The notes beneath the pieces were generated by a model, which made no database searches, was not told the origin of the DNA, and saw only the letters and a program-made list of their open reading frames with translations. The position numbers and the translations under genes are program-made. Below, in pieces: positions 27,280 to 63,200 of a stretch of 64,000 nucleotides of DNA (its first letter is position 1; every line of letters begins with the position of its first letter). Origin of the DNA: Candidatus Omnitrophota bacterium (GTDB lineage: Bacteria; Omnitrophota; Gorgyraeia; Gygaellales; Profunditerraquicolaceae); the NCBI GenBank assembly GCA_016208765.1, contig JACQXK010000038.1, positions 14,955-78,954 on the forward strand, in the 5' to 3' direction.

Positions 27280-27327
27280 AAACCTCCCCTACGATTTTCG
27301 TAGAGAGGTGTCCAATACTTCTCTATT

Positions 27328-27417: not shown

Positions 27418-27423
27418 GAGCAT

Positions 27424-27469: not shown

Positions 27470-27536
27470 AGATTGGACAATTATATTGGACTTTATTTCA
27501 CTTTGGACATTTTACAGGCATTTAATAATGTCCAAA
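27470..27536. promoter_or_regulatory. Cluster of TTGGACA(T) motif sites just downstream of the gene B stop, including the inverted pair TTTGGACAT(17 nt)ATGTCCAAA
   Basis: cagattggacaa (27470-27480), attggac (27485-27491), tttggacattt (27503-27513), aatgtccaaa (27527-27536). Confidence 0.6.
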
Positions 27537-27545
27537 CTGAAACCT

Positions 27546-30500
27546 TTAAAATTCTTCACGGGTTTCTCCTGAAGTTGAGAAAGTAACAGACTTATTTGTT
27601 TCAGTTGAGCTGCTTAAATCAGGATCATTGGATGGCTTTGCTTTAATATAATCCCACCTATAACCAACAGTGTCATCTCCCATTAAAGGCTTAACAAAAG
27701 CCTGCGGCATACCGTTAGCATTCCATGCCGGAGGCAGCATAATTGAAGCACGGCCTTCATAGGCAGCTCCAAGAGTAAGATCCTCAGGATTATCCTGCAC
27801 CAAAGTAATACCATTGCCCATATCCACCAGTTGGATCTTAAGTAATCCATCTCGTGCCTCTTCCAAGCTGATAATAGATTGTGCGGGATCCTGCCAGCGG
27901 CCCAATTCTTCACTAAGTTTCTTTATTTCTTCCTGCACTTCCTTTAATTTCTTTTCAGCTTCTTTTTTCTGCTGGCTATCATCACTCATCGCTTCCAAAC
28001 CTTTATTAATATTTTCTTCTTGTAGAACTAACTCTTCAACACTGCTTTTCTTATCCCTCAGATAATTTATGTCTTGAGTATAAATATTATATGCTGTGCG
28101 AATATTTGCCTCAATAGAATCTCTATTGTACGCTCCGTTACGGGGCAGGGTAAATGCCGGCGCCAACTGCAGATTATTTTCTGCCCGATAACCGGAAGTA
28201 ACGCCCCATTGCAATAACGGCGCATTTTCTTCGGTATTAAAACGGGTATACTTATAAACACCCGACTGCCAAACCACATTTGCCGGAGCGCTAAGCTGCC
28301 CTATCTGTTTCACATATTCAGTCCTCTCAAATAATTCTCCCGAGGTATGCTTATCTGCCTTGGCTCTTTCAGCATTGAACCTGTCAAACACAACGCGCTT
28401 TGTAAGCGGCAGATCTTTCTGCTCTTGGGCATCATCACCTTGGATAGCCTCAAACTGTTTAAAGTCAAATACAACACTCTGCGCAATTTGCCATATCTGG
28501 TCGGTTAAGCTGCTTGGAATTGCTGAATCAAATTGAGGTTTATTGCCACCGGCGTAAGCCGCATTCAATGCCTCTTCAAACATACGCTTCCCCTTGTCTC
28601 TTAAAAATGCTGCTTCTCTGCCTGTGTTTAAATACATATAAGGCTGCAGTGCCGGGCCTGAGCGGGTTTCAGAAAGGCGCCATGAGTAAGACGGATTTCC
28701 ATAAGGGCTGTGCCCTTGGCCGATAGAATAGAAGTTATAATTGTAGTCTGTATTTGCCCCGACGGAAACTGGAGCGTAGCCAGATGGCTGTATTTCAACT
28801 GTAGGAACAACTTCCGGCTTCTTAGGCTCCGGATCCCTCATCATTACCTCAAGGCTGCGCGGCAACCATATCACGCTGGCAGCAAGCATGTTAGCAACAT
28901 GGTGGCGAGGAGCTTTGTCTGGATCATAATCCTGGATAACCGCAGTTGTTGCAGCATCTCTTTTCATATTATTGCTCGGATAATCTGAATTGGATTGCAT
29001 ATTCCAATCTTCTAAGACAGTTGCCCAGCCAACAAATTTAACGGTAAATCTTTCTTTGTCTTTAGCAGACATTTCATTCCAAGCATCATGATTATTGGCA
29101 ATATACCACAAAAGCATTGTATTATGCGAAGTTGGCTTGTCGCTCTTAAACCCGCGTCCAACCCTTCCTTGTTTTTTATACCAACGCCTCACAATGCCAT
29201 CAAGTTCTTTCACCAAATCCGGATTATCAGCAAACAATTTCTCTGCATCCCGGTAAGAAACTTTCACCACTTCCACATCTTTGTTTTCAACTGCAGCTAT
29301 AAGCCTTTTTGTGGCCACAGCTTTAGCGGCCCTTTGCACCGGATCATCCCTGCTAAACAGCTGTTCCGTCGCTGTAGGCAGTTTTGGAAAACGAATAACT
29401 ACCCGAGCCTCAACAGGAACAGGGCTCTGCCCTTGAGGAGCAGCTGCTTGATCTTGCTTGCCAACTACGCTTTGCTCTTGCACATACTCCGGAGGAGTAA
29501 TCGCGGTGTAATCCGTTGTCCTGGTCAATGCAGAACCAAACGGGCCGTAATAATATTCGGTTGTCTTGGGCAATTGCACCAAATTCCAATTACCATTGGC
29601 AAAATCCTGGCCATCCTCACTAACAAAATCCTGCCCGAAATATTCTGTGCTTCTTGCCCTGCCCCATAAATCAACTCTGGTGCGCGATAAAAGGCTGGTA
29701 ACCGGCGAGAAAAATACCGGCCGCGCAGAAGAAAATTTGCGGATAATTTCTTTTTTATCTTCAAGTGACAAAGCCAATAATTTTTCTTTTTCGGCATTAA
29801 ATTCCTGCACTGCTTTTTCATCCTGAGCATCAGGCAATTGCATACGTTTTACAAATTTATCAAACTGCTCTTGCATAAACTGATCCTGAGTAACAAGGTC
29901 ACTCTTTTGAGCCTTAAGCATATCTTGTGTCAACGCCTGCATTACCGGCTGGGCGATAACAGAACGCCCATAGGTCAACTGATCCAGAGGCAATCCGCCG
30001 GCAACTGACAAAGAATAAGTGCTGTTTACTACTCCGTCGCCAATATTAGGTAAAGATAAATATTTACCCAAAATACCTCTTTCCTGCGGCTTAAGCATTG
30101 TTGAACTGCTGGCGCTAAAATGCCGCATAAATAATGCTTCATTAGTATTTAGGGATGCGTCCATACCTGCGGCCTCATCTCTGCGCTGGTAATGATAAAT
30201 ACCGCCGATTTGCCCATGGCCAAGGCTTGAATCATACACGGAATATTCCATTTGCCTTGCCTCTGCCATCTGCCTTGCCACAGGCAGAGCTTGCTGCATC
30301 CAATTATCTTCACCTTCTCCGCCTTTCTTGCTAAAGAAATAAACCGACTTATCTCTAAGCGCCCAACCTTGAGTAATTTCTGCAGTAGTAACAGGAGCAG
30401 AATCAGGTAACTTAGCGCTATACACAGGTGTTAACCCTTGTGCCGCAACCACCCACTGGAATATTTCCTGGCGCGGAATTGATAAATCTTGAAGTTGTCT

Positions 30501-33500
30501 ATTTATTTCTGGTAAAGGCGCTTTTATTGCATCCATTTCATCTCTCAATCCATTAATGCGTGTCTCCTGGATACTAACAAAATCCTTAACCTTACCTTCA
30601 AAAACACTGATTTCTTCTGCACCAAGCGCATCACGATTCATAGATTGTCCAGCAAGCTTATTAATATTTTCTACTTGCTCTTCTTCCCCAGCAAAAACAC
30701 CAAACTGAGCATTTGTGGCAACCACAAGCGAAATTGTATTAACATCCGGATTTAAACCTTGCTCTTTTGCCTTCTGCAAATCTTGATATGCTGCGTAAAT
30801 CGGATCTGCTTCCAGCTCTTTTTTCTTTTTCTCTTTTTTATTCACTTGCTCTGCAATTTCAGTTTTCTTTACTTCTAAGCCAACTATTTGCTCAGCTGTA
30901 TCAGGCTTATATCTCTTCGCAGTATCAATAAATCTTTCTGCCTGCTCTCTTAAGGCCTTTCTTCTTTGCGTTTCCTCTTTTACTAACTCGCTTGTAGGCT
31001 TAAAACTTGCGTAGGTGCGGGAAGAGCGAGGCAATATTGGATTTGTAAAAACAGCAGAAACAGATGAAGCCAGCCTTGAATTTGCCTGCTGGCTCAATGA
31101 TTCAAGCATTAATGCCCTATTAGCTTGTAACGGGCTGTAACCCTTTGCCCGCATTTTCATATATTCAATAAAACGATCCTGCTCATTAAATCTTGCCTGC
31201 AAACCATTCATTCCGTTAATCGGCGTCCTTAAATTAACCGGGAACAATGTGGCATTAACCGTTGACAGGAATAAATTATCCCCTATATTTTCCAAGGTAG
31301 CAGGAATAAACCTGCCCAACACATCACGCATGCTGAAATTAATTCTTCCTTTGCTGATTGGATCCTCGCCCAGAGAAGGCATTCTCCTGGTTTCTCCGGA
31401 GTAATCAAACCCAGCTATATTTAATCCATAAACAGTCCTGGTAATTTCGCGTGTGCGCACGCGGAAATCCTCCGGAGCAAGCTCTACTTCTTTTCTTTCT
31501 TTGGAAGATAAAACAATTATACCGGTTTCTTTCTTACCAACAACAACACCTTTCTCATTTACTACATCCATTATCTTACGGGTATCTTGTGCTACCGAAT
31601 ACACCGTAGTAGTATCTGCATCCAATTCAAATTCTCCGGTGGATTCACTTCTTGCTGTCCCGCCTTGCGCTCTTATCTGGCTGACTGAAGCATAATGCAC
31701 ATCGCCAGTGGCAGACTTTAAAGAAATAAGCGGATCAGCGGTATTTTCTGTCCAAAATTTAGTCCCGTTAATCTCATATCCGGGGAGAGTAATCATTTTT
31801 AATGGAGAACGCTGAGACGGGCCGGCAAAAATAAATTCACCTTCTCCTAAAATATTATACACATCAACTATCTCAGTTTTCTGAACCGATTTGTTAAATT
31901 CTTCTCCGCTCATCTCTAAAATATTGCCATCGGTAGAGATAAAAGTGTGTTCCGGAGAAGCATTGCCTTCTTGGTCAGTAGCTCTAATATAAGTCCGTCC
32001 ATCTCCGGCAAACCGATAGTATTCTACGCTCCGTCTTGGACCCGACTGGGCAATCGCAGCCCACTGCTCTGAAGAAACTTCTTTATTTTGTCCATCACCT
32101 AATGAATGCAAAATAACACCAGCTGGCTTAGCCTGCTGGCTAAATTTCTCCGGCGTCATAAAAGTCCTCTGGCCACCTGGAGTTGATGCTCCCAAAAGCA
32201 CTCCAGTAACTGTACTCACGCCCTTTAATGCCTGTCCACTGCCATATTGGACAACATTTGCGGATAAATCTTCCAACGACACTGAGATCTTCTTTTTAGT
32301 CGTTCCTTCGCTTTCCAATTCAACACTATTGCTATCCTGGCTATAGCCAACAATATGATAATATTGTATCTCACCTGAACCAGAACTAAGGCCTACTCGC
32401 ATAGGAGCATTATTTGATGCTGAAGTTTCTGATGATTTCTGCTGCAAACTTACCGCCAACTCTCTGCCGAAGTCATTTTGAAATTCATCCATTGTCTTAA
32501 GTTTTTCACTGCCGGCAACTATGATCGGCTGTTGATCACTTTTTTTCTCGTCTTTGTTTTCTTCCGGTTTATTCGCCACAAAATCAACAACCATTATATT
32601 TCCAGTAGCTATTACTTGGCTGATATTACCATCTCTGACATAAACCTGAATATCTGTTTTCTTTGCTCCTTGCTTTTCTTTTACCTCATCCAATGTTTCA
32701 GAAGAAAAATCTATATACTGGCCATCGGGGGCATGAGCCCTTGTTATATCTTTTGCCGGTGCGCGCAAGACCAAAGCATCAACCACTGAACCAGCCACTA
32801 CACCACTGGCAAGATGTAATAATTCCTGCAATGCCTGCGGTTGGCGAATTTCATTCACCCGGCAATACTGCCCCCAGGCAATTTGCAAGCCGGCATCCAC
32901 AGCATTATCAATTAGCGACTTTGCTATATATTTAGAAAGAGATAAACTTCCTCTTGTTCGCCAATAATTATCCTGGACTTTATTACCTGTTTTATCATCT
33001 GTCCAAGTCGTTCCGGAATACCATGTGTTTAAAACATCTATATTAGAAAACACACCGCTAGAAAAACCGGCAATTGCTCCAGCACCTACGCGCTTAACCA
33101 AATTATCAAAAATCTTATCATCATCGTCGCCGTAATGAGTCTTATACCCCATTGCTGATAAGACTGCAAGCTTAACCCCCAAATTAACAAAGGGTGCCAG
33201 CCCCATATTCTGCACCGCCTTAAAAGACTGATTCAATATGCCAAAATCACTCATTGTGTTTCCTTGCACATCAGTCATCAATCCACCGGTTGCATTTAAC
33301 AAAGCAGCTGTGTTAACATGCGCTTGTGTTAATAAATTCAACGTACTCAGTTGTGCCTGAGCAAGCTCTCTTCCTGAAACCTGGAGCAAAACATTTTCCT
33401 TTTCACCTGTTGGAATAATAAGAATTACTTTTTCGGCAGATTGTAAAATACCAGCGAGCGCTTTATTTTGCGCAACATCAGAAAGGGCGATACTCCCAGC

Positions 33501-35045
33501 ATTATCTATGGACGCTGTTGCCCCATTTAACTGCGCAGCTGTAAAAGAATATTCTTTACCGCTAATATCTCTGATAGACACCGCAGCCTGCTGCGCCTGA
33601 TTAACCGCATTTAACATAATAGCATCTGCCTGATCCAACGCTCCACCTACTGCACTTAAGCTATACCCTCCCACATACTGCATTAACGACCTATAAACAG
33701 AACCCTTGTTCATATCAATATCAAGCGTATATGTGTCTTCACCAATTTTTAAAACTAGCGCCTTCTGCAACTCTCCAATTTCTCCCGTATTAATTCCTTC
33801 CTGCAATGATGTACCTTTAGTAGTTTTGCCTTGAGATAATTCCTGGATACTAATTTCTACAGTTTCAACCTTACCGTCTTTTGTTTGCCGCGTAACTTTA
33901 ACTTTGTCATTTGACGTAGCCTGATCAGAAACTGCATCTAATGCAGAAAATGCCAAGTTTGAAACAAATTGGTTTACAAAAATCCCGGAAACGCTGGCTC
34001 CAAACTGCGACACTAAATCAGCCAGCAACTCATCCCACCCGGCTTCTTCAAGCTTATCCTTTATTCCCTGCTGTGTCCAAAGCTTAAATGTGCCGACAAT
34101 CATATCGCTTGCCAAATGCACCAATGGCTTCTTTACAGATAATTCAATCCCATATTGAAAATAAGGGCTGCGCATACCGTAGCTTGGTGAGAACTTTTGC
34201 AGCAAAGCTTCAATCTTACCCATAACAACATCAAAGGTAGATAAATTACCTAACACACCCTTAATAATATTTTCTTTAATGAGCGCTAAACTTTCTTCAG
34301 TAACCTGCGCTGTTATCTCTTTTGGAAGAATTTTTACTGCCTCACTTGCTGCCTTTTCCAATGCCTCTGCTGTAGGCTTTCCGCCTGCCTTGGCTACACT
34401 GGCTACTGCCGTTACCACAGCATTTTTTATTGCAGCCTCACAAACAGAGCTTATTACTTCCTCAACTATCTGATCCACGCCTTCTTTGCCAAGCGTTTTC
34501 AATACTTCTTGAGGCAACTGTTCAATTGCTTCCCTTGCAGCGCTCTCCATCATTGCCAGCGAGGCTCCTTTTGGCAATTCTTCTATTGCCTTTTTAGCAG
34601 CGCTTTTAGCTGTTTCCTTTGCCATTTCTTTTGCTGACTGCGCCACGCCGGCACCATAAGCCACGCCTACAGAAACTACCATACCGGCAACCATAGAATA
34701 AAACTGCCCCTTAGTAACCGTAACCCCAGCCACCTCAAACATCGGCTTTGCATACTGATTATAATTGTAATAGTAAAGCGCGTAACCAGTTACATCAGAA
34801 GCAGCAGAGCCCGCCGCTGCTGCAGCAGCTCCCCATGGGCCCAGAGCGTAAGCTCCCAAAAGTATTCCCGCATCAGTTACTGCACCTGCCAAAGCGCCTC
34901 CGGCAAAAGACTCCAGAGAAGTAGTGTTGCCATAATTGCCTTCTCTTGCCCAAGCCGGAGAAAGGCTGCTAAATAGAAAAACACCCGCCAGAATTAAGTA
35001 TGGGATTTTAAATCTTTTTAGGTTAGAGAAAAAGTTACTTTTCAT
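27546..35045 (-). CDS. Giant secreted protein B (about 2,499 aa), function unknown
   Basis: ORF track 27546..35060. I prefer the ATG at 35045 (MKSNFFSNLKRFKIPYLILAGVFLFSSLSPAWA, signal peptide with AWA cleavage site). The N-terminus has Gly/Ala-rich hydrophobic stretches. Long coiled-coil and charged segments; contains LASSVSAV and SPVTS-like motifs. Confidence 0.85.
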   Translation of the reverse strand: MKSNFFSNLKRFKIPYLILAGVFLFSSLSPAWAREGNYGNTTSLESFAGGALAGAVTDAGILLGAYALGPWGAAAAAAGSAASDVTGYALYYYNYNQYAKPMFEVAGVTVTKGQFYSMVAGMVVSVGVAYGAGVAQSAKEMAKETAKSAAKKAIEELPKGASLAMMESAAREAIEQLPQEVLKTLGKEGVDQIVEEVISSVCEAAIKNAVVTAVASVAKAGGKPTAEALEKAASEAVKILPKEITAQVTEESLALIKENIIKGVLGNLSTFDVVMGKIEALLQKFSPSYGMRSPYFQYGIELSVKKPLVHLASDMIVGTFKLWTQQGIKDKLEEAGWDELLADLVSQFGASVSGIFVNQFVSNLAFSALDAVSDQATSNDKVKVTRQTKDGKVETVEISIQELSQGKTTKGTSLQEGINTGEIGELQKALVLKIGEDTYTLDIDMNKGSVYRSLMQYVGGYSLSAVGGALDQADAIMLNAVNQAQQAAVSIRDISGKEYSFTAAQLNGATASIDNAGSIALSDVAQNKALAGILQSAEKVILIIPTGEKENVLLQVSGRELAQAQLSTLNLLTQAHVNTAALLNATGGLMTDVQGNTMSDFGILNQSFKAVQNMGLAPFVNLGVKLAVLSAMGYKTHYGDDDDKIFDNLVKRVGAGAIAGFSSGVFSNIDVLNTWYSGTTWTDDKTGNKVQDNYWRTRGSLSLSKYIAKSLIDNAVDAGLQIAWGQYCRVNEIRQPQALQELLHLASGVVAGSVVDALVLRAPAKDITRAHAPDGQYIDFSSETLDEVKEKQGAKKTDIQVYVRDGNISQVIATGNIMVVDFVANKPEENKDEKKSDQQPIIVAGSEKLKTMDEFQNDFGRELAVSLQQKSSETSASNNAPMRVGLSSGSGEIQYYHIVGYSQDSNSVELESEGTTKKKISVSLEDLSANVVQYGSGQALKGVSTVTGVLLGASTPGGQRTFMTPEKFSQQAKPAGVILHSLGDGQNKEVSSEQWAAIAQSGPRRSVEYYRFAGDGRTYIRATDQEGNASPEHTFISTDGNILEMSGEEFNKSVQKTEIVDVYNILGEGEFIFAGPSQRSPLKMITLPGYEINGTKFWTENTADPLISLKSATGDVHYASVSQIRAQGGTARSESTGEFELDADTTTVYSVAQDTRKIMDVVNEKGVVVGKKETGIIVLSSKERKEVELAPEDFRVRTREITRTVYGLNIAGFDYSGETRRMPSLGEDPISKGRINFSMRDVLGRFIPATLENIGDNLFLSTVNATLFPVNLRTPINGMNGLQARFNEQDRFIEYMKMRAKGYSPLQANRALMLESLSQQANSRLASSVSAVFTNPILPRSSRTYASFKPTSELVKEETQRRKALREQAERFIDTAKRYKPDTAEQIVGLEVKKTEIAEQVNKKEKKKKELEADPIYAAYQDLQKAKEQGLNPDVNTISLVVATNAQFGVFAGEEEQVENINKLAGQSMNRDALGAEEISVFEGKVKDFVSIQETRINGLRDEMDAIKAPLPEINRQLQDLSIPRQEIFQWVVAAQGLTPVYSAKLPDSAPVTTAEITQGWALRDKSVYFFSKKGGEGEDNWMQQALPVARQMAEARQMEYSVYDSSLGHGQIGGIYHYQRRDEAAGMDASLNTNEALFMRHFSASSSTMLKPQERGILGKYLSLPNIGDGVVNSTYSLSVAGGLPLDQLTYGRSVIAQPVMQALTQDMLKAQKSDLVTQDQFMQEQFDKFVKRMQLPDAQDEKAVQEFNAEKEKLLALSLEDKKEIIRKFSSARPVFFSPVTSLLSRTRVDLWGRARSTEYFGQDFVSEDGQDFANGNWNLVQLPKTTEYYYGPFGSALTRTTDYTAITPPEYVQEQSVVGKQDQAAAPQGQSPVPVEARVVIRFPKLPTATEQLFSRDDPVQRAAKAVATKRLIAAVENKDVEVVKVSYRDAEKLFADNPDLVKELDGIVRRWYKKQGRVGRGFKSDKPTSHNTMLLWYIANNHDAWNEMSAKDKERFTVKFVGWATVLEDWNMQSNSDYPSNNMKRDAATTAVIQDYDPDKAPRHHVANMLAASVIWLPRSLEVMMRDPEPKKPEVVPTVEIQPSGYAPVSVGANTDYNYNFYSIGQGHSPYGNPSYSWRLSETRSGPALQPYMYLNTGREAAFLRDKGKRMFEEALNAAYAGGNKPQFDSAIPSSLTDQIWQIAQSVVFDFKQFEAIQGDDAQEQKDLPLTKRVVFDRFNAERAKADKHTSGELFERTEYVKQIGQLSAPANVVWQSGVYKYTRFNTEENAPLLQWGVTSGYRAENNLQLAPAFTLPRNGAYNRDSIEANIRTAYNIYTQDINYLRDKKSSVEELVLQEENINKGLEAMSDDSQQKKEAEKKLKEVQEEIKKLSEELGRWQDPAQSIISLEEARDGLLKIQLVDMGNGITLVQDNPEDLTLGAAYEGRASIMLPPAWNANGMPQAFVKPLMGDDTVGYRWDYIKAKPSNDPDLSSSTETNKSVTFSTSGETREEF

Positions 35046-35087
35046 ATTTTTAAGTGGCAAATACTTTTTGAAACTGTTTAGGATTTA

Positions 35088-35419: not shown

Positions 35420-35509
35420 GTCATGCCCGCGGACGCCAGCGACCTTGCCGCTAGGCAGACGGGCATCCAGGCGTTCCAACGGCTGGATTCCCGCTTTCGC
35501 GGGAATGAC
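35420..35509. repeat. Palindromic intergenic repeat copy C
   Basis: gtcatgcccgcggacgccagcgaccttgccgctaggcagacgggcatccaggcgttccaacggctggattcccgctttcgcgggaatgac. Nearly identical to copy B. Confidence 0.85.
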
Positions 35510-35531
35510 ACGAGCGCCAAGGAAGACCAAC

Positions 35532-35586: not shown

Positions 35587-35622
35587 AGATTGGACATTAT
35601 CACAGCTATTAATGTCCAATCT
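35587..35622. promoter_or_regulatory. Near-perfect palindrome AGATTGGACATTA(9 nt)TAATGTCCAATCT, 6 nt after the lipoprotein gene stop; operator-like and/or terminator hairpin
   Basis: 13/14-bp arms. There is no U-tract afterwards on the sense strand. Confidence 0.55.
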
Positions 35623-45119: not shown

Positions 45120-45291
45120 CTTGCACCCCCATAAATGCTGCTATGGTCTGAAAATGATTCTCAAACACATTATTCTTTGTTTTTAGAAGAAAATCAGTGC
45201 TTACTAAGGCAATCACAGCTACTGCTGCCAAAAGCAGATATTCTACGAAAGATTGTCCAATCTGGTTTCTTAAAGACTTTTTAAATTTCAT
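45112..45291 (-). CDS. flp: Flp-family pilin (flp1, about 59 aa), first gene of the pilin array, under promoter/leader L3
   Basis: ATG at 45291 preceded by AAGGAG. MKFKKSLRNQIGQSFVEYLLLAAVAVIALV. The track ORF 45112..45444 reads through the leader. Confidence 0.75.
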   Translation of the reverse strand: MKFKKSLRNQIGQSFVEYLLLAAVAVIALVSTDFLLKTKNNVFENHFQTIAAFMGVQVD

Positions 45292-45302: not shown

Positions 45303-45489
45303 TAAATAAAAAACCGACGTCTCTTTTACTTTCAAAGAAACCTCGGCTTTCGGTAACCCGGCTAATGCTCTCGCTCTTGACCTTAAAGCTTAAAGCAATG
45401 AAGACAAATCTTGCGAGCGTCATCCCGTGGCTTTGCGCATCCACCCCTCCAAGAGTGGAATTGCCTTTTCGTTGCCGCCCTTCAACTAC
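45303..45489 (-). promoter_or_regulatory. Leader L3 upstream of the flp array, sharing the 3' half of the L1/L2 leader
   Basis: Sense strand: ...GCGCAAAGCCACGGG...GCCGGGTTACCGAAAGCCGAGG...GACGTCGGTTTTTTATTTAAGGAGatactaATG. aaataaaaaaccg matches L1 exactly over 13 nt. Confidence 0.45.
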
Positions 45490-45524: not shown

Positions 45525-45555
45525 GGACATTTCAGCTCAAACAGGAAAGCGCTTT

Positions 45556-47370
45556 CTAAACCTGAAACCAAATTGACTTGTTGTCACAAGACTTAATCTC
45601 ACGCTCATTTAACCTCAGGCAGGCGTATTTGAGCTCCCTTAAATAGCGAAAACCCTGCGCAGGCTTAAAAATATAAATTAAATCATTGCCTTTGTGCTCA
45701 ACATGCACTTCCATGGAGTAAAACTGCTCTTTTACCGTCGGAAAATCAATATTTTCCGCGCCGGCAGGAAAAAAATACCTTTTAAAATATGCGTCTAATG
45801 CCAAAAGATACTGATTAAACAAGGTTAATGTGTCACTCTTCACATATTGCTGCAGGCTTAATGATTCTGCAGAAAAACCCTGCTGCGAACTTGCCGTGTA
45901 AGTAAAAAATTCTATTTTACGCTGAAAGTCCTGCAGGCCTTCTTCAAAATTTGGCCAATGCTCCAGATAAAGCACAGCCAGATCTTCAATTTTAATCTCT
46001 TCCGGAGCAATATTTGAAAGAATAAAAAGGCGAGGCTTATCCGAGAGGGAGTTTTGTAAAACGCACCCTCTTAATGTAACATTATGCGTTGCATGTGGTT
46101 GCGATAGGCTGACTTCAATTGGAGCAAGAAAATATTCCTTATTTAGGGTGCTAAAATAATATGGCCTAAATTCCCCTGTTTTCTTTATCTTTCTATAACC
46201 ACTGTATTGCCAAGGCCATAGCGCAAGAATAAGCCTTCTTTTTTGCGGTTTCATGGTGAAGATCTCCAGCTCATCCAAACGGTTGCCATAAAAAGTTAAT
46301 GAGCGGATTTGCTTTTGCTGGTTTTCTAAAGCCAAAAGAAAATTCAAGAATTCAACTGGTAAATCTTCCCCTCCAGGGCAAGAATAAAAAACAAGCGGCT
46401 CATTTTCAAAGAAATGCCTGTTTATGTAATTCTTTGCAGCCAAAAGAGTTGTGCCAAAATCATAAGGCACATATGCTGCCGACCAAACTGTGCGTAACTG
46501 CCCGTCTAAATACAGGCTCTGCCCGTCTGAAAGCACAACCTTGATACAACGCACAGGCTCAAAGGTATTAACGATCGTACGAAACACATCTATATTAATT
46601 TCTTTAACCGTTTGGATACTATCAAGATATGCGTTAATTTCCTCCTGGGAGAATTGCTTTCCGGTTAGATTTGCTGCTAAAGAAAGCCTTTCATAAGATA
46701 AATTTGCCAAACCTTCTAATTGCAAGTAAATTACGCTTTCAGTAATTAGCGAAAAATCACCTGAGACAAGTTTTATCCTGCGCTTGATCACCTCGGCAAT
46801 ATGTTTAGAGCCTTGCAGGAGATAATCCATGGCTTTCAACAAGATCAAACCATTCAACAGGATTTCTTTTTGCGGTTTTATTTCAGGCAGCACCTCTGGT
46901 ATTTCTGCCACGGGGGTTTGCTCAGTAACAGATTCTCCGACGGGAATCTTTTCTTTTTCACCGGTTATCTCTATGGGCAGGTTTATTTCTTCAACAGGCT
47001 TTAAAGGTACAGCTGCTTCGGGCATAATTACTGTTTCTTCTGGTTTTGCCTGCGCAGCAACCGGCATGATTTCTATTGCCGGCTCGGCTTTTACTTCATC
47101 GGGCTGTTTCAAAATGCCTTTTAAGTCATCCTGAGAGAGGGCATTGGCCGGCCGAAGGATCTTAACTCTGCGGCGCTTACAAGGCCTTCCTACCGGCATG
47201 CTTAAGCTGGCATTCTTAATGATAAAATTAATACTTGATTTGGAAAGCTTAATATTAAATTTGTGCTGAACCAAAGAGGTGAGGCCACGGCAGCTCAGAG
47301 AATGATCATTCTTTTTTTCCTCTAAGACGAAGCTGATTACCTCTGATTTAATTTTGTAGATTACGCCCAT
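45556..47370 (-). CDS. 604-aa protein with N-terminal helix-turn-helix (transposase-like HTH, ...SMPVGRPCKRRRVK), Pro/Glu-rich linker and a large C-terminal domain; candidate locus regulator
   Basis: ORF track entry. RBS GGAGAGAG. Its promoter is bracketed by AGATTGGACATTT sites. Confidence 0.5.
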   Translation of the reverse strand: MGVIYKIKSEVISFVLEEKKNDHSLSCRGLTSLVQHKFNIKLSKSSINFIIKNASLSMPVGRPCKRRRVKILRPANALSQDDLKGILKQPDEVKAEPAIEIMPVAAQAKPEETVIMPEAAVPLKPVEEINLPIEITGEKEKIPVGESVTEQTPVAEIPEVLPEIKPQKEILLNGLILLKAMDYLLQGSKHIAEVIKRRIKLVSGDFSLITESVIYLQLEGLANLSYERLSLAANLTGKQFSQEEINAYLDSIQTVKEINIDVFRTIVNTFEPVRCIKVVLSDGQSLYLDGQLRTVWSAAYVPYDFGTTLLAAKNYINRHFFENEPLVFYSCPGGEDLPVEFLNFLLALENQQKQIRSLTFYGNRLDELEIFTMKPQKRRLILALWPWQYSGYRKIKKTGEFRPYYFSTLNKEYFLAPIEVSLSQPHATHNVTLRGCVLQNSLSDKPRLFILSNIAPEEIKIEDLAVLYLEHWPNFEEGLQDFQRKIEFFTYTASSQQGFSAESLSLQQYVKSDTLTLFNQYLLALDAYFKRYFFPAGAENIDFPTVKEQFYSMEVHVEHKGNDLIYIFKPAQGFRYLRELKYACLRLNEREIKSCDNKSIWFQV

Positions 47371-47379: not shown

Positions 47380-47450
47380 AGATTGGACATTTCCTCTACA
47401 ATATTACCATTTTTATGCGGCGTGTCAAGCTCTTTATAGATTGGACATTT
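47380..47450 (-). promoter_or_regulatory. Promoter of the HTH-protein gene (TTGACA, 16 nt spacer, TAATAT) flanked by two direct AGATTGGACATTT sites
   Basis: Sites at 47380-47392 and 47438-47450. -35 at 47423-47428, -10 at 47401-47406. Confidence 0.5.
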
Positions 47451-47793
47451 ATTCTTGAACAGCTAAGATATCACCAACTTGGGCTTGAGATGCGGAAATA
47501 CTGCCTGCGGAAAATTCTACAACATAGCGCGCCTGCCAGAAAATCGAGCTAAACTTAAACGGCTTAAGCGCAAAAAGCATAGCAACAACTTTGTAATTTT
47601 TGTCTAAAAAGAGCGCATCAATAGAGAAGCGCATAAAAAAGGTGTGAATTGAATTGCAGGGTTTAATTAATAACGCTGTATCTTGCGCCAAACTGCTTCT
47701 ACCCAGCAATCCCCTGGTCCTTGACCAAAAATTATCTGCAATAATCAGCTTCTGGGCAAGCACAATATTCTTAGTTTGATTTAGTAAGCGCAT
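47449..47793 (-). CDS. DUF192 (COG1430) family protein
   Basis: ...LIKPCNSIHTFFMRFSIDALFLDKNYKVVAM... matches the DUF192 core. Confidence 0.55.
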   Translation of the reverse strand: MRLLNQTKNIVLAQKLIIADNFWSRTRGLLGRSSLAQDTALLIKPCNSIHTFFMRFSIDALFLDKNYKVVAMLFALKPFKFSSIFWQARYVVEFSAGSISASQAQVGDILAVQE

Positions 47794-47797
47794 TTAG

Positions 47798-47823
47798 ATC
47801 CTTCGCTCGTTCAGGATGACGTC
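47798..47823. repeat. S-element copy 3 (reverse orientation) spanning the tadZ-tadA stop codon
   Basis: gatccttcgctcgttcaggatgacgtc. Confidence 0.6.
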
Positions 47824-54007: not shown

Positions 54008-54082
54008 TAGCCCCAACCGGATTTGAACCGGTGTTTAGTGGCTGAGAACCACGCGTCCTAGACCAGGCTAGACGATGGGGCC
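54008..54082 (-). tRNA. tRNA-Glu (anticodon CUC), 75 nt, no encoded CCA
   Basis: I folded it by hand. Acceptor GGCCCCA/TGGGGCT (7 bp, one G-U); D-stem GTCT/GGAC with an 11-nt D-loop containing GG; anticodon stem 4 bp plus one mismatch; loop TTCTCAG; T-stem ACCGG/CCGGT; T-loop TTCAAAT; discriminator A. Confidence 0.7.
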
Positions 54083-54215: not shown

Positions 54216-57200
54216 TTATTTAGATACAAAGTTTATACCGGCTAAACTTGATTGAAATTCTTCTCCTGTTTTTTCCGACTCAAGCGCAACTAAAAATTGT
54301 TTTAAACCGGTGTCTGTCGCGCAACATTCTTCTTCCTGCTTTCTTAATATATCTGCCATCAGGCTGATTACTTTATCTATTTCCTGATCAAAATTATTTA
54401 CAGCGCAACAATTAGATAAATACTCTTTAATTCTTTGCGCTGAAGGAGTAATTCCTCCATTGAACATCCTCTCAATTGCTTGCCATTCTTTGGCTAAAGA
54501 GCCATCCGTAGAGTAGAGGAGGTTTAAACCTCCTCTACTAACTGGTGACTGGTGACTGGTGACTGGTGACAGCATCCCCGGCTGTGTCACAATCGGCAAA
54601 ACGCGCATATCAATACCACCTTTTTTGTCCGCTGATGATGAAACAGGATACTCAGTATTAACCATCGCAATATTTTCAGCTTCCTTCTTTTTTCTAGCGT
54701 CAACTAAACTAACTACCTTAGGCGGACTTTGTAATGTCAAATTAACACCTAATATCTTTGCTGATTTTTCCCTGATAAGATTAATCTCATCTGTAATAAG
54801 CCCATAATCGGATTGAGAAATAATCTCTTCACCTCTAACCTCTTTTGCATATTTTGATATTATCGTAATAAAACGGTTTACTGCATTCCAAGCATCTTCA
54901 TTGCTTCCGGAAATATTAATCTCGTAGCGCGGTTGTCCAAAAATCTCGTTAAGCTCATCACGAAGCTCTTTAACATTATCCGAACTCAAAGTCGTGTTCT
55001 GCAATATATAATCCCCCAGATGCATTCTTAAAAGCAACAGCAAATCTTTTACCTGTTTTTTATCTACGTTCAATCTGACATCTTCTTGTCCCGCGCTTAA
55101 CGAATAATCCCGGTTTATATTTATCACAGGAGGATATTTTTCCACCGCCGAGGAGGCTGTCGCACCGGCTCCCGCATTAACGTTATCTCTTTCGGTTTTT
55201 ATATTACCTCTCGTGGCATTGAGAATCTGTGATAACAATAATACTGCAGAAGTATCCGCTGCCTGCTGATTATATTTATTCTTAAAACCTATATATGTAT
55301 TAAACGCTCTTGCACCAGCTGCCGCAGGGTCAGCCATGAGTTTCTTAAAATTTTGAAGACTAAATTTCAAAGCTCCTTTTCTTCTGGAAATAAAATCCTT
55401 AGCCGATAAATTAAACAACCAATCCCCAGGAAAATATAAAATTGGTTTTACAAGGCCTGCCGGCTCAAATATATTTCTATCTTCACCGACAATACACAAA
55501 TCTGCGATTGCAAACATTTTTAACAATTCTCCTGTTGTATAGAGAATCAAAACATCCTTTTCCGACATGTCTACAAACTTTTCCGTAGTTGTTCCCCGGA
55601 TTTCAACGATTTTGCTTGCGACCGTTTCAGGTAAACCACCGGGCCATTTTTCTCTTGGCGCAAAAATTAATAGCGGCCTATCCTGACGGGGTAGATTACC
55701 ATATAATTCATCAAATGCCTTAGCCACAGCATTTGCTTCGTGATAATAAGGAGAGCCCACAACAATAATTTTTCTCTTACCGACATTTAATTCTTTTTTT
55801 ATCCGGGCTGCTTCCTCAGAAGCCACAAATTCCTGCATACTGTGTTTAAAAGGAAAGTAGGGCAATGAAACAGAGGCGCCCACCTCTTTATCAACTCCGC
55901 GATGATCATGAAATTCTATCCAGATATACCTCCCATCATCCTGAACCTTGTTGGGCGCAACGAGCTTTTCTGCACGATAACCTGGAAATTCTTTTTCTAC
56001 AACTTCTTTTTCTTGGATATCCCCAAGAAAACTAAATTCGGCTGTGCCGCTATCCAAACCTAATGCTTCAATAAAACCTCTGGCGGCACGAAGCGAAGCA
56101 AACTCATAGGCGACAAACTTAATTTTTTTTCCGCTTAATTTTAAAGCATTTTTAAAAATACGGCCGATTGCGATGATTTGATCGCGGCCGACAGCCTCAT
56201 CTGGCCTGCCCAATTTATCAACTAACTTATTAAATAAAATTAACGCGAGATTCTCAAGTTCTGCCTGAGCATTTTCTTTGCCTATTCTTTCAGCGCCAAA
56301 AAAGACATTGCTGATTCGTAACAAATTTGCTTTGGTTTGCACAGAATTACCGACAACAACTATTTCATCTTTTAAGACAGGAAAGGCAGTCTCAAATAAA
56401 TCCACTGCGTTTTCTTTCGCCAATACACCGGCTTCTACAAGGGTCTCAAAATACCTATCAAAAAACTCCATCCCAAACTCTTTAACAAAAACCTGTAGGC
56501 TATCAATAAACAAGTTATTAGATTCTCTGCCGCTAGCCATAAGCAGAGAAACAAGGCCATTGCCAATTCTTTGCAGATTCTTGGTAGTTTTTTCTGCATC
56601 ATCTTTTACGACAATTAACTCTTTAAATATTACCAAACCCAACTCACACAGAACCCATGCTTCCTCGCCTGAAGATTTAAAAAGCTCAACAAGAACATTC
56701 CAATTTGTTTCCATAAAATGCTCTCCGTATGCTTTATAGAAAACTGGCAGGCTATTTGCAAATAAGAGAATGGCGTTTTCTCCGGAGCTCTGGGCAATCT
56801 CTACCAAGCTATCCCAATGTTTAGTGACAAAGGCCATGCCGACTTCTTTTGTTAACCTGGGTAAAGCAATACGGAATAGAGGGCTTGCTATTTTTTTATT
56901 AGCCCCACAGAACTCAACCAGTCTTTCAGAAATTCCTGTCAAAGAAAGAATTTGCTGAGTCTCTTCAGGAAGGTCATTAAATGAAATTTTTGTAAAAGTA
57001 AAGATTTCTTTATTATAATCTTCCCTGATTGAGCCTCCCACCGCCGATGAGGAAACGTTGGATAACTTAGGCTTAAATGCGATCGCCGCAGGAGAATTGT
57101 CTTTTTCATTTTCAAAAATAATTCTCTCAACTTCTTTCTTTCTATTTTTATAAATGTCAGCTATCAGTTCATCAACATAGGGAACCCTTTTTTCAATCCT

Positions 57201-60200
57201 CGCGCCAATATCGGGAAGCATAAAATCCACAAATAATATATAGCCGTTATCACCCAAAATTTCTTGCGCTTGGGCAATGTATTGCCATACATTCCAATTT
57301 TCATTCCCTATGCCAAGATTAACAGGAGCATATAAATTCATAAATTGCCACATGTTATAAAACACTACCACTACAGGGCCTTTTTGCAGTCCGAATCTTT
57401 CTTTTAAACTATCCTGAAAGTCATCTTCAAAAAAATCTTTTTTGAATATTTCACAGCCTTCTACAGCAGGAAGCGATGCGTTAGCGTCCACATTAATTAC
57501 CCGCCAACCTTTCGTAATAAGCGGGTTCCGGCCACTTCCAATATTTAAAATCACGCTACCCTTAGGAATCTTTAATTTCTCAAGAAATATTTCCAGGTTT
57601 TTTGAAGCCGCTTCCCTGTAATGGCCATTTAAATCATTGAGATGGGGCATTAGAGATACGCGTACGCACGAAGACACATCCTCCACCGCAGAGGAAGCGA
57701 CAGTATCTATATCCTTAGGAGCGAGCGAAGAATCAAGAGGCAGCTCAATAATCTTAGGCTCAACAGAAAGAACTTGGTTATTCAAAATATTAATCATTCT
57801 CCGGCATTCTTTTGTAAGAGCACCCTGAGCGTCATAATATGGCCTCAAACAATAAAGCTCGTCTCCTTTTTGCGAAATCGCTACCTGCCCACCAAGAGGT
57901 TCAAGATAATTTACCAGGGTATCTTCCTTATCTCTAAACCAAGCGGCAAATTCTCTTATTAACAAGTCTTCATTACCCGTATCATAATAAAGACTGAAAA
58001 ATGTTTTAATAAATTCTCTATTGGCTTCTGAAAGACTTAACCATAATTTTTTTAATTCAAGGCGGTAATCAGGATTAATAAAGTATTCCGCGTGATTTAA
58101 TTCATGTTCAACTGTAGCTTTTCCTGCGCCTTGATAGTAAGTTACAATAGCTATGTCAGGAGCGCCAATATATGTATGGCCTGTTCTCACAAGCAACCCC
58201 AGCTTTATTAATTCTTCTTTCATTCTTTCCTCTATGACGTTTAAAGACATGCCCTGTTGCGCTGCCAATGTAAAGAAATTTGCCATATCCTCCAACTTGA
58301 AATCATGGCCCAATGCTCCTTCACACCCAGTTTCTGCCAACTCTTGGTCAAGCCGGCTATCCGAAAGCAAGCCATTTTTCTGTTCTACAAAAAAACTAAG
58401 CCGGTCAAAGGCTAATCCTTGAAACGTAGACTTGTTAAATACGAAAAAGAATACCGGCTTAGAACCATACTTTAATAATCTGTAAAACTCACTTTCCCGC
58501 AGGTTAACATTCAAAATATCCTCTGCTTGCATAAAACTGGATAATACTTCAGAGGCCTGAAGAGGATATCCAGACAAAGATGTTTTTAACTCTTCCAATC
58601 TCCCCTCTTTAAAATACCTGTACCGGAAAGCTGGATCATATTTCAAACTCCTTGCCATCATGTCTCTGTAATAAATACTAGATTCCATGTTTTCTTTTAT
58701 AATTAATCTAAATTCTTTTGAATCAAGAAAATGTTTCAAAATATCTGCTACGGGTTTTACACTACCGTCTCCCTGTAGGATAGCCGGTGCAATAACGAGC
58801 ATTGCCCATAAAAGAATTCTTTTAATAACCCTATTAAAATTAATCATCTTATGATTTCCTGAAAGAATATTGGTTATTGTTGCCGATTCTGTTCCTTCCG
58901 CTACTGAAGAGTTAGCAGATTGCTTAATCGCCGAGGAGGCGACAGTGCTTTTGGCATGAGGCGTAAGCGAAGAATCAAGAGGCAGCTCAATAATTCTTTC
59001 TTCAACAGCAGGCGGGTTAACTTGCGGGCCTGGAAAAACACTTTCTTCCTCTTGCGGTTTTTTTGTTCCGCTAATCATGCCTTCAACGACATTCACCGAA
59101 ATTTTCTTTTCTTTGCCTTTGCCGTCGCCAAGAGTAGCCACCACTAAAACAATCGTATTCCCTTGGTGGATGAGAACAGTATTAGAGCAAGTTACATCTT
59201 TAAAATCATCCTCGGCAATGCCTAAACGCCTGCAGACCTCTTCTTTGCTCTTGATTAAAATATCTAAAGCATCAACTACGGCTTTTTGGGAAACTATATC
59301 CAAATTGCTATTATTCGTGCTCTTGAGCAATTCTAAACTTAGATTATGCGCCTGATATTCCACCTCAAGACGCGGTTTGCTATCAGGGCTTCCTGAATAG
59401 ATAACCATATAGGCAATATGCTGAGCCAGGGCCATAGCTCTTTCTTTCCTTCCCCCTTGCAGCCGGCTGAACCATTCCCACCCAACCACTATAATTGTAG
59501 TAAAAGAAGTTTTGCCGGAATTATACGTAGTTTTCGTCTGAAGAAAAGCCGTGCCATCCCCCATGCCTATTCCTTTCATAAAAAGAACCTGAAAATGATT
59601 ATTTTCATTTCTTAAAAAAGGTTCTTCCGGTAACTTATCCGCCAAATATTTGATGCTTTCCTCAACTAGCCCTGCGTGCTCATTAGATATTCTTATGGAT
59701 TGTTGCAGCCGTTCTTTTGTAACTCTGCCCGGGGCATACCTTTGCACAAAACCTAACAGCCTGTCTGAATAAACAATATCCTCTTGCTCATTGTTGTCAA
59801 AATCTTGCTGGCCTACCACTTCTCCCACTGTCTTTTTTATGCCCTCCAATGCCGTTGCGTTCATAGGCATAATGCCCAAGGCTGCTACAAAAGCAACCAA
59901 AGAAAGCAAGCCCGTCGCTGCTAACTTTTTCTTCACCGCCGAGGAGGCGAAGGATCCAGAGTAAGTAGCCCGATAGGCTTTTTCAAAAGAGCGCAATGCA
60001 ATATCAGAATACTTACCGAGAGACCTATACAGCTCAAAATACTCAGTCTCAATATTATCCTCTGAGACTTCGTTCAAGCTGTATACATTATTAAGATCAA
60101 CTCTCAACACTTCAGAGACCTTGTCATTTTCAACCCTGACAACAAATTGGCCAAGATGGGTATCCCCGGCGATTATTTCTTGATTATGAAGCGTGGCTAA

Positions 60201-63200
60201 AGTTATACCCAAAAACGCTCCCATCTCGCGCAGGAGATTCTCGCTATGCTGATGAACGGATATAAATTCTTTTACGTTTGGCCCGACCCAGTCAGAAACA
60301 AAAATAATCTTGCTTGATTGTGTCATCACTTCAAAAAACTGCTCTTTGTTTAATCCTAATTCACCTGCTACAGCATTATATTCATCCTCAGTACGCATCT
60401 CTACTAATTGCAACATATTTTCTTGTTGGGCGTTGCGTAAAATAGATAGCGTTTCAGAAGGCAAAAGTTGCTCATTCTTTTCTGAGAATGTAATTTTCTT
60501 CTGGGCTATCGTTGCTTCAACATCTAATCTTATCATCGGCAGGTAAACACGCAAAACCCGCGGCACAACCCTTTTACCTCCCGGAGTCCGTATTTGCAAA
60601 CTTAAACAATAGTTCTTAATACTTCTTGGATCAGGCGTTATGCCTCGCACATGCGCCTGTTTGTTATCCACAACCGCCTTAAAACCACTTTCTAATAACA
60701 ACGAATCAACTACTCTGCCTTTTGTTTCATTCACCGCCGAAGAAGCAAAATTTCTTTCACCTATAATTATCTTATCTCCCGGCCGTATATCGGGTATTTT
60801 TGAAAAAAGATTGAATCTGCCCTCGTCATTAACAACGGCATTTAATGCTCTTATTTTACCCGTACTTATTCTATACCTACGCCCAATCCCCCAAAGAGTG
60901 TCTCCTTTTCTCACCACGTGCCGAATCTCGAGAGGCAATCTCAGTTGCTGGCCTGCTTTAATTCTATGCATGCTGCGTAAACGGTTAATCCGGGCTAACT
61001 GCCCTGCAAGTTTTGCATTGCCATAATATTTAATTGCGATATGTCCCAAAGTATCGCGCGGCTTAACATCAATATATACATCTCCACGCTGCGGAGGTGG
61101 CTGAGCAAACTCTGGCGGCGGAATTTCAATGAACTTTTTAATCTCCATATCTAACAATCCCGGGAACCCGGCTGTGATAATTCCGAAAATTAAACCGGCT
61201 GCGATAATTCTAAAAATAGAGACAAGCCCTGATGTTTTTTCTTTATTCAAATGCTTTATCAAATTTATTCTTGGCGTTAAAAATAATTGGCTTGTAGGAA
61301 CCCTGTTATAATTAATAGGTTGAATATTATCTGATTCATCAAATTCAGGTACATTAAATTCAGGCCCATCATTATACGGCCCAGTAATTTCCTGATCCGT
61401 GATAGCTTCCACTGGCTGAGGCATCTTTGCATTGTAATAACCTAATTTTTGTAAAACTTTTTCTAAATCCCTGCGAACCGCCTCAGGTTTGCGGGTAACC
61501 CCCGATTCCCTATTTTCTAATGCTAATGCGCGCAATACTGCGTTAATTGTTTGTTGGTCTCTAAACAGCACCGGCAAGGTTAATTCCCTAAAAGCAGCAG
61601 AACGCACAGAATAGTCCTTATCTCTAATTAAGATTTCAACTAAAATTGGAGTTGAAAAACGATAATCAATCTTAGTAATTATTTTAATTATATCCTTTCG
61701 GACAGGAGATTTCTGGTCTTTTAGTCTATCGCGAAGCAGCTCTAAAGCAGGGTTACCTATGCGAATTAAAACATTTCCTATATTTTCATACCCAGAATCC
61801 CTATTCTCTAAAGCTGAAATAAGCTCAGGCACAGCAGCCTCTCCAATGCTGACCAAAATTTCAGCTGCGTCTTCCTTAATCGGACTGGACACTCCTTTTA
61901 GTAACGCGTCAATCAACGGCTTAACCGCCGGCTTACCAAAATTGGTTAAATCTTTGACAATAACTGTTCTTTCCTGAAAACCAAGTTTTTGGTTTAATCT
62001 GTCAATAAGCAACGAAATTACATAATCAACCCCGCCGTACTTAATTAAACCTTCAAGCGCGGCTTGGTGAACTCCCGGGTCATCATCTCTTAATAAGTTA
62101 AGTAAAATTAACACCGCAGGCTGAGGTACAATGTTTTTTAAAATATTATTACCGGCAAAAAATCCGTTCTTTTCTGAATATTCACGGACAGACCTGTCCC
62201 GCATAGCATTTTCTCTCAATGCCTGGCGCAAACCTTTGATTGAATATGGAGAACGCACCCAGCCAATCTGAACTGCTGCCCGGGCGACCTCCTCCCGGAC
62301 ACTCTTGTTTTCATCCCCGCTTAAATCAATTAAAACAGGAAATGCGGCAGGGTCTTTCATTTGAGCTAATGTTTGGACAACCTTTACGCGAATATCGGGA
62401 TTGGGATCATCGGCTAATCTCAGCAATGAATGTACTGCAATCCTGATTATTCCATCACGAAGAGGGGGGTCAGCCAGTTGAAGCAAAATATTCGTTATTG
62501 CTGAATAAACAGTTAAGCCGTGGTCAGGAAAATATTCTTCTGGAAACATTCTTTCTAAATCACGCAGTATCGTCAACAGATAATCTGTATTATTTCTTCC
62601 TCGCACAATTAATTCAATACGCGCAGACTCACGAGGAAGCAAACCTGCATATAAATCTTTAAGCAAAGGCCCGATGCTTGGATCGTCCGTTGCTGATAAT
62701 ATTGGAGAAGAGGAATTTACATAATTTCCAACCGCCGAGGAGGCGCTGGTACCTTTGACAGGTGCAATCGCGGAGCTTGCATTTTGTTTAGTTAGGGACG
62801 GTTCTGAAACATGCTTAAAAGTATCCCCCAGCGATGGCGCGGCTGCCGAAGAAGCACTATTTCTTCCCGCAAAAATAATTCCGCTATGTGCTTCAGCCTC
62901 TTTTGAACCTTCTCCATAGGCCTTAATAAACTCGTCCATCTCAGCAATGACTTCGTTTTCTAACGGAACCCCCTGAGAAAATAACCTTGCTTTAATTTTC
63001 TCTTTCTCTTGATAGGCTAAATTAAAATCAAAATGCGATAGTGCATCTGCAAAACTATCTATCAACGAAAGGTATTCTTTTCTTGAAGACGCCGCGTCAA
63101 AACTCCTTAACAAGAGAATCAGTTCATTAAAAATGTGCTCTCTAATCCTCTCCTTTTTAACAAATAATTCCACATAACCCTTGTCTTTTTCCTCCAGGCA

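Follow-up and report, generated by a model that had tools for sequence, protein, structure and literature searches.

In insertion sequences such as IS1, IS2 and Tn5, a transposase or repressor (InsA of IS1 and of IS2, Tnp/Inh of Tn5) regulates its own synthesis by acting at a terminal repeat that overlaps the transposase promoter, while autoregulated repressors such as lambda CI, LexA, GalR and AraC, the last by looping, use operators at the -35 and -10 elements and cooperate through helical phasing. TldR, a nuclease-dead TnpB that represses flagellin genes, is an exapted transposon protein that acts as a transcription factor. Control of pilus and adhesin genes by c-di-GMP-I riboswitches (RF01051, RF03167) is a further, already known layer. 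Here we have characterized a 12-base word, AATGTCCAATCT, that is found on both sides of the promoter of a gene for an unannotated 604-aa protein with a predicted helix–turn–helix (HTH) domain. Because the layout of these sites recurs across a phylum, we regard the word as a candidate binding site, and most likely a genuine one, of a previously undescribed regulator of pilus and giant-protein genes.

The logic of this system, in which an HTH protein would control its own gene through operators at the promoter, is classical. As in IS1/IS2 InsA and Tn5, a predicted HTH of transposase type is paired with a short asymmetric site lying over the promoter of its own gene and, as in Tn5, the modelled C-terminal domain of the 604-aa protein has, tentatively, a Tn5-like fold; the annotation 'IS2 insertion element repressor InsA' was itself met among the database results. 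In contrast to insertion sequences, the 604-aa gene is fixed in the tad locus throughout the phylum, has no inverted repeats, gives no DDE_Tnp Pfam match and is accompanied by further arrays of sites that adjoin giant adhesin-like genes of the host rather than the ends of an element. Like the operators of lambda CI, LexA, GalR and AraC, the copies lie before the -35 element and at +1, sometimes also in the spacer, and are separated by integral numbers of turns. Unlike those operators, however, the motif is asymmetric and mostly present as direct repeats instead of a dyad for a symmetric dimer, it occurs additionally in arrays at the 3' ends of operons, and the protein is some 600 aa long with an extended disordered linker and an unrelated large C-terminal domain. 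The likeness to TldR would be one of concept, namely a transposon-derived DNA-targeting protein that is fixed beside surface-appendage genes and acts at promoters, although TldR is RNA-guided and derived from TnpB whereas the 604-aa protein is predicted to be a protein-only HTH joined to a DDE-like fold of tentative ancestry. The known riboswitch layer is present too, with the same aptamers leading flp and two giant genes, but the 12-mer is situated upstream of, and outside, these aptamers. What is new is the unannotated and possibly transposase-derived family, the stereotyped bracket of sites found phylum-wide and the phased arrays beside the giant genes.

The window (the whole stretch of 64,000 nucleotides that was analysed) comes from a metagenome-assembled genome (MAG) of the Omnitrophota and consists of a tad/flp pilus locus between three giant genes, with all of its long ORFs on the minus strand. 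In order of transcription, giant gene C (63905..54216; 3229 aa) is first and is separated by a tRNA gene (54008-54082, minus strand; 51.9 bits) from the first genes of the tad locus, which are an 81-aa ORF, a PPIase, RcpC/CpaB, a secretin–TonB_C fusion, a ParA–TadA fusion ATPase and a DUF192 gene (47793..47449). The 604-aa ORF (47370..45556) begins after a 78-bp spacer, and 3' of it follow the flp pilin, the pseudopilins, a TadG-like protein, two T2SSF proteins (TadB/C) and a PsbP-like lipoprotein, whose gene ends at 35629. Giant gene B (35060..27546; 2504 aa) and giant gene A (26829 to past the start of the window; >8943 aa) complete the series. Both fusions are unusual and both are kept in relatives: the ATPase combines a ParA/MinD-like (TadZ-like) N-terminus with a TadA/T2SSE ATPase (47811-49967, minus strand) and the secretin bears a C-terminal TonB_C domain (49971-51647, minus strand).

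Omnitrophota are uncultured bacteria, mostly of ultra-small size, that are believed to live as predators or parasites and for which Tad pili and giant proteins are signature 'host-interaction' genes (PMC10066038; bioRxiv 10.64898/2026.06.07.730766). In term searches of these two Omnitrophota genomics papers, and in wider library queries, we found no mention of the motif, the regulator or the riboswitches in these loci. Our analysis supplies a concrete cis-element, a candidate family of trans-acting factors and a second layer of control in the form of the c-di-GMP riboswitches, and tests of the proposal are feasible in vitro or in a heterologous host, with no need to cultivate the organism.

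Copies of the motif are concentrated outside the genes of the window. The initial annotation had described a 13-mer occurring about seven times; this count is accurate for the 10-base core AGATTGGACA, which is present in seven copies against approximately 0.1 expected, but not for the exact 13-mer AGATTGGACATTT, of which there are two copies (47380-47392 and 47438-47450; 0.01 expected), and toleration of up to two mismatches raises the number of 13-mer matches to 10 against an expectation of 2.7. Six of the seven core copies fall in non-coding DNA, a fraction that makes up about 4% of the window, and seven of the nine strong matches to a position weight matrix (PWM) of the motif are intergenic. 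Apart from the two copies at the promoter of the 604-aa gene, an inverted pair at 35587..35622 (22.6 bits each) forms a perfect palindrome with 13-nt arms and a 10-nt spacer, 7 nt past the stop codon of the PsbP-like lipoprotein gene, which is the last gene of the tad locus, and roughly 255 bp upstream of the promoter and 310 bp upstream of the c-di-GMP riboswitch of giant gene B. Another cluster, at 27470..27538, contains three or four copies, depending on whether a partial one at 27485-27491 is counted along with those at 27470-27482 and 27500-27512 and the inverted copy at 27526-27538 (PWM scores of 21.3, 17.2 and 21.2 bits), and is located about 365 bp upstream of the promoter and riboswitch of giant gene A. 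The palindromes that had been noted after the stop codons of gene B and the lipoprotein gene were both recovered in this way, the latter as the perfect pair and the former as an imperfect palindrome (27500-27538) that begins 8 nt past the stop of giant gene B and is accompanied by the extra copy at 27470.

Two other core copies, which the initial annotation had not described, can be regarded as putative sites whose status is uncertain. One (63879..63891, minus strand) is flanked by GGGAGG and by the likely start codon (ATG) of giant gene C, in the orientation opposite to that of the promoter copies and with weak flanks that keep its PWM score below 10 bits. The second (45251..45263, minus strand; 19.5 bits) is embedded in the coding sequence of the flp pilin, where it spans the codons for Q-I-G-Q-S and hence the G-Q-S processing motif of Flp; this copy is kept only in two related loci (L001 and L004), and coding constraint may account for its sequence.

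On the coding (minus) strand, the region ahead of the 604-aa gene reads TAAATGTCCAATCT-ATAAAGAGC-TTGACA-16 nt-TAATAT-TGTAGAGG-AAATGTCCAATCT-GGAGAGAGC-ATG, with gaps of 9 nt (ATAAAGAGC) and 8 nt (TGTAGAGG). The distal copy (47438..47450; AAATGTCCAATCT on the coding strand; 21.8 bits) stands 9 nt before the -35 hexamer, at a place where the DUF192 gene ends and its stop codon (TAA) overlaps the motif. The -35 hexamer TTGACA (47423..47428), which is conserved in orthologues, and the -10 hexamer TAATAT (47401..47406) constitute a promoter with 10/12 consensus matches, a 16-nt spacer and a TG ahead of the -10 element. Located 8 nt past the -10 element, the proximal copy (47380..47392; again AAATGTCCAATCT) attains the maximum PWM score of 23.9 bits, adjoins the GGAG Shine–Dalgarno sequence and is expected to extend over the predicted start of transcription and the early leader. 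The initial annotation was therefore correct in describing two direct copies that flank the promoter, one before the -35 element and one between the -10 element and the Shine–Dalgarno sequence. Elements of sigma-54 or ECF promoters were also considered and, as judged by eye, gave no consensus match.

We examined the conservation of this bracket by scanning one genome per species, which returned 116 relatives, and retaining the best 80 loci, nearly all of which belong to Omnitrophota MAGs while about 15 are otherwise labelled, mostly as 'uncultured Planctomycetales'. Counts for upstream regions refer to the 59 non-identical orthologous regions in this set. The two closest orthologous loci, which encode proteins with 60% and 40% identity to that of the window, have the same bracket. 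A sigma-70-like promoter was found in 58/59 regions, the proximal copy between the -10 element and the Shine–Dalgarno sequence in 57/59, the distal copy, at up to 45 nt upstream of the -35 element, in 45/59 and both copies together in 44/59, while six of the 59 have an extra inverted copy between the -35 and -10 elements. The placement of the proximal copy is exact in many cases, as ATGTCC begins precisely 20 nt ahead of the ATG in 42 regions. The consensus of the motif is AATGTCCA-A-(T/A)-C-T, with an invariant TGTCCA core. The order of distal copy, -35, -10, proximal copy, Shine–Dalgarno sequence and ATG recurs where the proteins share only 30–60% identity, and the bracket is retained in loci in which the 604-aa gene runs opposite to the tad genes on either side (L011, L015, L016 and L038). 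This comparison of site positions among relatives, which had been suggested at the outset as a check, strongly upholds the proposed autoregulatory operator layout as a conserved cis-element; that the adjacent protein is what binds there is a part of the original claim that we infer.

The distribution of the motif beyond the promoter was determined with a PWM built from the orthologous promoter sites and applied at a threshold of ≥15 bits to 1.27 Mb of sequence around the 80 loci, which yielded 220 matches as compared with two in shuffled sequence. About half of these matches are at the promoter and a second hot spot occurs at +9 to +12 kb downstream, with almost no matches in the flanking DNA outside these two hot spots. 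The second hot spot is the spacer past the last tad gene (TadC or lipoprotein), making it the counterpart of the 35587-35622 palindrome of the window, and it typically contains two or three copies upstream of a c-di-GMP riboswitch and a giant-gene homologue. Since matches in the 1.27 Mb around the 80 loci are concentrated at the two hot spots, a DNA uptake sequence or a dispersed repeat of the REP type is disfavoured as the main reading of the motif.

An unbiased scan of metagenomes for exact direct pairs with copies 8–38 nt apart recovered 91 stretches, where by our own estimate fewer than one would be expected by chance. Among the 80 of these stretches that were retrieved, 42 adjoin TadB/C or a homologue of the giant-A N-terminus, and others occupy the interval from rsmI to a giant ORF or precede genes for TPS-type adhesins, while at least six 'pairs' (L084, L118, L124, L134, L137 and L157) are unrelated tandem repeats with a chance 12-mer. 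A c-di-GMP-I or c-di-GMP-I-GGC riboswitch heading a giant gene was detected 250–560 bp downstream of the cluster in 16 of the 19 loci tested. The window itself has three c-di-GMP-I aptamers (RF01051), all on the minus strand, in the 5' leaders of giant gene A (26915-27056; 46.6 bits), giant gene B (35121-35276; 35.6 bits) and flp (45349-45475; 40.2 bits), and the riboswitch preceding giant-A homologues in related metagenome loci is often the GGC variant RF03167. The initial annotation had envisaged a dedicated regulator that ties together the HTH gene, the pilin promoter and the upstream regions of the giant genes; the second hot spot and the metagenome scan argue for the sites at the giant genes, whereas the link to flp is weak. 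Some metagenome contigs, including L093, L151 and L154, contain arrays with 5–11 copies of the motif. Long tandem arrays on short contigs (L093, 37-180; L154, 2179-2340; L147, 1075-1135; L151, 4450-4716) have periods of either 14–16 bp or 20–40 bp.

The product of the 604-aa gene matches, at 100% identity, a hypothetical protein from a Candidatus Omnitrophica MAG and belongs to a family of approximately 874 clusters at 50% identity for which there is no existing annotation. A lookup of the exact protein returned no record. No match of its own was obtained in Pfam or NCBIfam, a sequence profile search of the PDB with the family returned nothing at E≤10, and a HMMER representative search provided no bridge to annotated transposases among the matches listed, all of which were strong family members. 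AlphaFold predicts an N-terminal three-helix HTH (residues ~9–53, pLDDT around 90), a disordered Pro/Glu-rich linker (residues 59–167) and a folded C-terminal domain (residues 168–604, pLDDT 90.8, pTM 0.89). The earlier designation of the product as an HTH protein thus draws no support from a Pfam or NCBIfam match of the protein itself but agrees with the confident three-helix model and with weak matches of its homologues to HTHs of transposase type (HTH_33 in 27/33, HTH_32 in 22/33 and HTH_Tnp_Tc3_2 in 7/33). Conservation along the protein is highest in the HTH, with LSCR, SKSS(I/V)N and the G-R of a PVGRR tail essentially invariant, and the invariance of SCR and SKSS(I/V)N parallels that of the TGTCCA core. 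Recognition helix and motif core are accordingly both invariant, and the variable positions of the motif differ even within one genome.

In a survey at the level of Pfam and NCBIfam combined with the structural model, the 604-aa protein was the only one of the locus with a predicted DNA-binding domain. The argument that links protein and motif is built on this absence of another DNA-binding protein in the locus, on adjacency and on co-conservation, and a reader may prefer to see in the motif a real operator of a different, unlinked transcription factor of which the 604-aa gene is a target and not its own regulator. We consider this unlikely, because in 57 of 59 lineages the promoter of the 604-aa gene itself has the sites that are tightest, best conserved and most stereotyped, because the protein has an invariant HTH and because occurrences of the motif track the locus of this gene across the 1.27 Mb sampled.

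Whether the motif acts as DNA or as RNA can be addressed through its spacing and orientation. Start-to-start spacings of direct copies peak at 21, 30–31, 40–43, 52–54 and 63–64 bp and fit best to a period of 10.75 bp with a vector strength of 0.5–0.65, for which the nominal p-values ignore sequence relatedness. The spacing of direct copies is one of helical phasing; the promoter copies of the window, at 58 bp or 5.5 turns apart, are out of phase. More than 85% of copies are oriented along local transcription (137 on the transcribed strand versus 24 on the other), which means that nearly all of them would also be present in mRNA, either in the 3'UTR of the upstream operon or in the 5'UTR of the gene, and which makes a function at the RNA level a genuine rival. 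In this alternative, AAUGUCCAAUCU would be a signal in the 5' leader and in the 3'UTRs of tad operons that is bound or processed by an sRNA, an RNase or some RNA-binding protein, as is suggested by the strand bias, by the fixed distance from the ATG of a proximal copy that adjoins the Shine–Dalgarno sequence and by the first copy of downstream clusters, which overlaps or adjoins a stop codon. Such a signal is, nevertheless, quite unlikely given that inverted copies are frequent (in both clusters of the window, in six promoter spacers and as pairs in L028, L029, L065, L069 and L075), that the spacing tracks the helical repeat of DNA, that the distal copy is kept where the gene diverges from its neighbours and has no co-directional gene upstream, and that the leader of the 604-aa gene has no significant RNA structure (z = +0.6). 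An inverted copy between the -35 and -10 elements, moreover, lies where repressor sites are typically found and is hard to explain as an RNA signal. Helical phasing, together with the persistence of the layout on inversion of the gene, favours binding of a protein to DNA. A CsrA-type GGA site, assessed by eye, was rejected separately, as the promoter orientation has no GGA on the mRNA strand.

Protein binding to DNA could also serve recombination. In Foldseek searches with both models, the five best PDB matches were Tn5 transposase or its inhibitor (E = 4e-4 to 4e-2, probability up to 0.91), at TM-scores of only ~0.2, and the C-terminal domain can tentatively be said to resemble Tn5 transposase. 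Alignment with hhalign against an IS4/IS186 alignment was not significant (probability 0.6%, the IS4 homologue search having given only close relatives), and the sole region it paired with IS4, again without significance, was 'ILSN...YL..WPNlEE.FQDf' with 'LLTSM...YshRWeIElgyreiK' of the YREK region. The segment Y468-x2-H/R-W-P-N-x-E-E...K485 resembles the YREK signature of IS4. D289 (in YLDGQ), D481 and E487 are invariant in the family and E477 is at least 90% conserved, while no second Asp of the kind expected for a DDE triad is clearly conserved in the family alignment, in which P332 of 'APGYD' is invariant. DDE_Tnp_1 (PF01609) matched neither the 604-aa protein nor its homologues. As the Tn5 matches come with TM-scores near 0.2 and the pairing with IS4 is non-significant, a transposase ancestry of the family, although plausible, is unproven.

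The gene is not a mobile insertion sequence: it is usually single-copy, is syntenic between DUF192 and the flp/tad genes in nearly all loci, and is without flanking inverted repeats, with both promoter copies upstream and in the same orientation and no motif copy regularly found past the stop codon in relatives. These features bear on the explanation that the product functions, or functioned until recently, as a Tn5/IS4-like transposase or recombinase, with the motif copies as end-binding sites that serve rearrangement of the locus by inversion, excision or mobilization instead of control of transcription. The Foldseek matches, the transposase-type HTH, the YREK-like segment, a resemblance of the arrays of several direct binding sites to the ends of Tn7 or Mu and a variation of gene orientation and tad gene order among genomes would all be in keeping with such an activity. 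We judge it very unlikely in view of the low TM-scores, the hhalign result, the absence of a DDE_Tnp Pfam match and of a clearly conserved second Asp, the synteny of a usually single-copy gene across the phylum, the lack of inverted terminal repeats and the single orientation shared by the two main clusters. With respect to gene order, we observed that the 604-aa gene runs opposite to the two halves of the tad locus in L011, L015, L016, L023, L038 and L078 and that the order of the TadB/C and pseudopilin blocks varies among lineages, indicating that the locus has been repeatedly rearranged around this gene.

A domestication event, as distinct from present mobility, is a reading that we put forward tentatively and at somewhat less than even confidence. 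An ancient Tn5/IS4-like transposase would have been domesticated in the common ancestor of a large Omnitrophota clade and would have become a sequence-specific master regulator or DNA-architectural organizer of the tad-pilus/giant-protein 'attack' locus, its former end-binding sites having been turned into phased operator arrays that work with c-di-GMP riboswitches. A literature query returned no example of a bacterial DDE-type transposase exapted as a transcription factor, and to our knowledge no other is known. If the transposase ancestry is true, the 604-aa family would therefore represent an unusual bacterial case.

The palindromes of the window can form hairpins of -19 to -20 kcal/mol (z = -4 to -5) and begin 7–8 nt past stop codons, yet it is hardly credible that they are ordinary hairpin terminators or REP-like repeats to which the promoter copies are coincidentally related, because they have no U-tract, a terminator scan was empty at their positions, the clusters of relatives are mostly direct repeats unable to form hairpins, the promoter bracket is conserved independently and the genuine REP-like and GC-rich hairpins of these spacers are different sequences. 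An intrinsic (Rho-independent) terminator was likewise rejected, the stems being AT-rich and the structure not being conserved. The preponderance of direct repeats in relatives implies that it is the sequence and not the structure that is conserved, and the palindromic copies, although present in the window as first described, are a minority variant. The REP-like repeats mentioned above are GC-rich ('gtcattcccgcgaaagcgggaatccag...ggatgcccg...cgcgggcatgacaa'; 27230-27420 and 35420-35510, minus strand), share a k-mer, CGCGGGAATGAC, with five occurrences, and occupy the spacers that separate the motif clusters from the giant-gene promoters. In relatives, these spacers contain other GC-rich hairpins, for example 'ggggacggttctc...gagaaccgtcccc'.

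The reading that we favour, and hold to be probable, is that of a new autoregulated regulator–operator pair that also marks the upstream regions of giant genes. The sequence AATGTCCAAtCT would be a DNA operator of 12 bp, and the N-terminal HTH of the 604-aa protein encoded beside it would recognize it as a monomeric, asymmetric site. As the proximal copy extends over about the first 20 transcribed positions, its occupancy may block or trap RNA polymerase and so repress the gene's own promoter, a sign of regulation, negative autoregulation, that we infer from this position. The distal copy, and sometimes a copy in the spacer, would act cooperatively; the promoter copies are usually five or six helical turns apart, so that bound protomers could cooperate via the large C-terminal domain. 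The same protein may occupy the helically phased arrays of two to three or more copies past the last tad gene, and occupancy there, upstream of riboswitch-led giant genes, could link expression of the pilus to that of the giant surface proteins. The downstream clusters adjoin the preceding stop codon and are ~110–400 bp or more from the next promoter, a placement that is unusual for a classical operator. Their proposed role may be that of a roadblock or insulator or, alternatively, that of a distal regulatory site for activation or anti-silencing of the giant genes.

Matches to the motif were also observed within giant-gene coding sequences. An in-frame match, AAATGTCCAATCAG (K-M-S-N-Q), is situated ~100–135 codons into the giant-A homologues of L041, L042, L056, L065, L074 and L081 and is preceded by a copy of CGTCCAATCTGAC (V/S-S-N-L-T) in at least L042, L056, L074 and L081. 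At the position of AAATGTCCAATCAG, giant A of the window has KLSKGR and no motif match.

A half-site, AAATGTCC, adjoins the -35 hexamer of the flp promoter at 45525..45532 (minus strand), much as the initial annotation had indicated. The regulatory link that had been drawn from it was not sustained, since the half-site is restricted to the window and to L001, L004 and L005 and is absent from most relatives; sequence comparison thus makes only a weak case for its function. A perfect palindrome, GAAAGCGCTTTC (45545-45556, minus strand), overlaps the stop codon of the 604-aa gene 30–31 nt upstream of the flp -35 element. In 31 of the 59 regions a conserved palindrome, (G)AAArCGyTTTC, is located at this distance and is followed by a c-di-GMP riboswitch; a second regulator of the pilin promoter, one that acts as a dimer, probably binds there.
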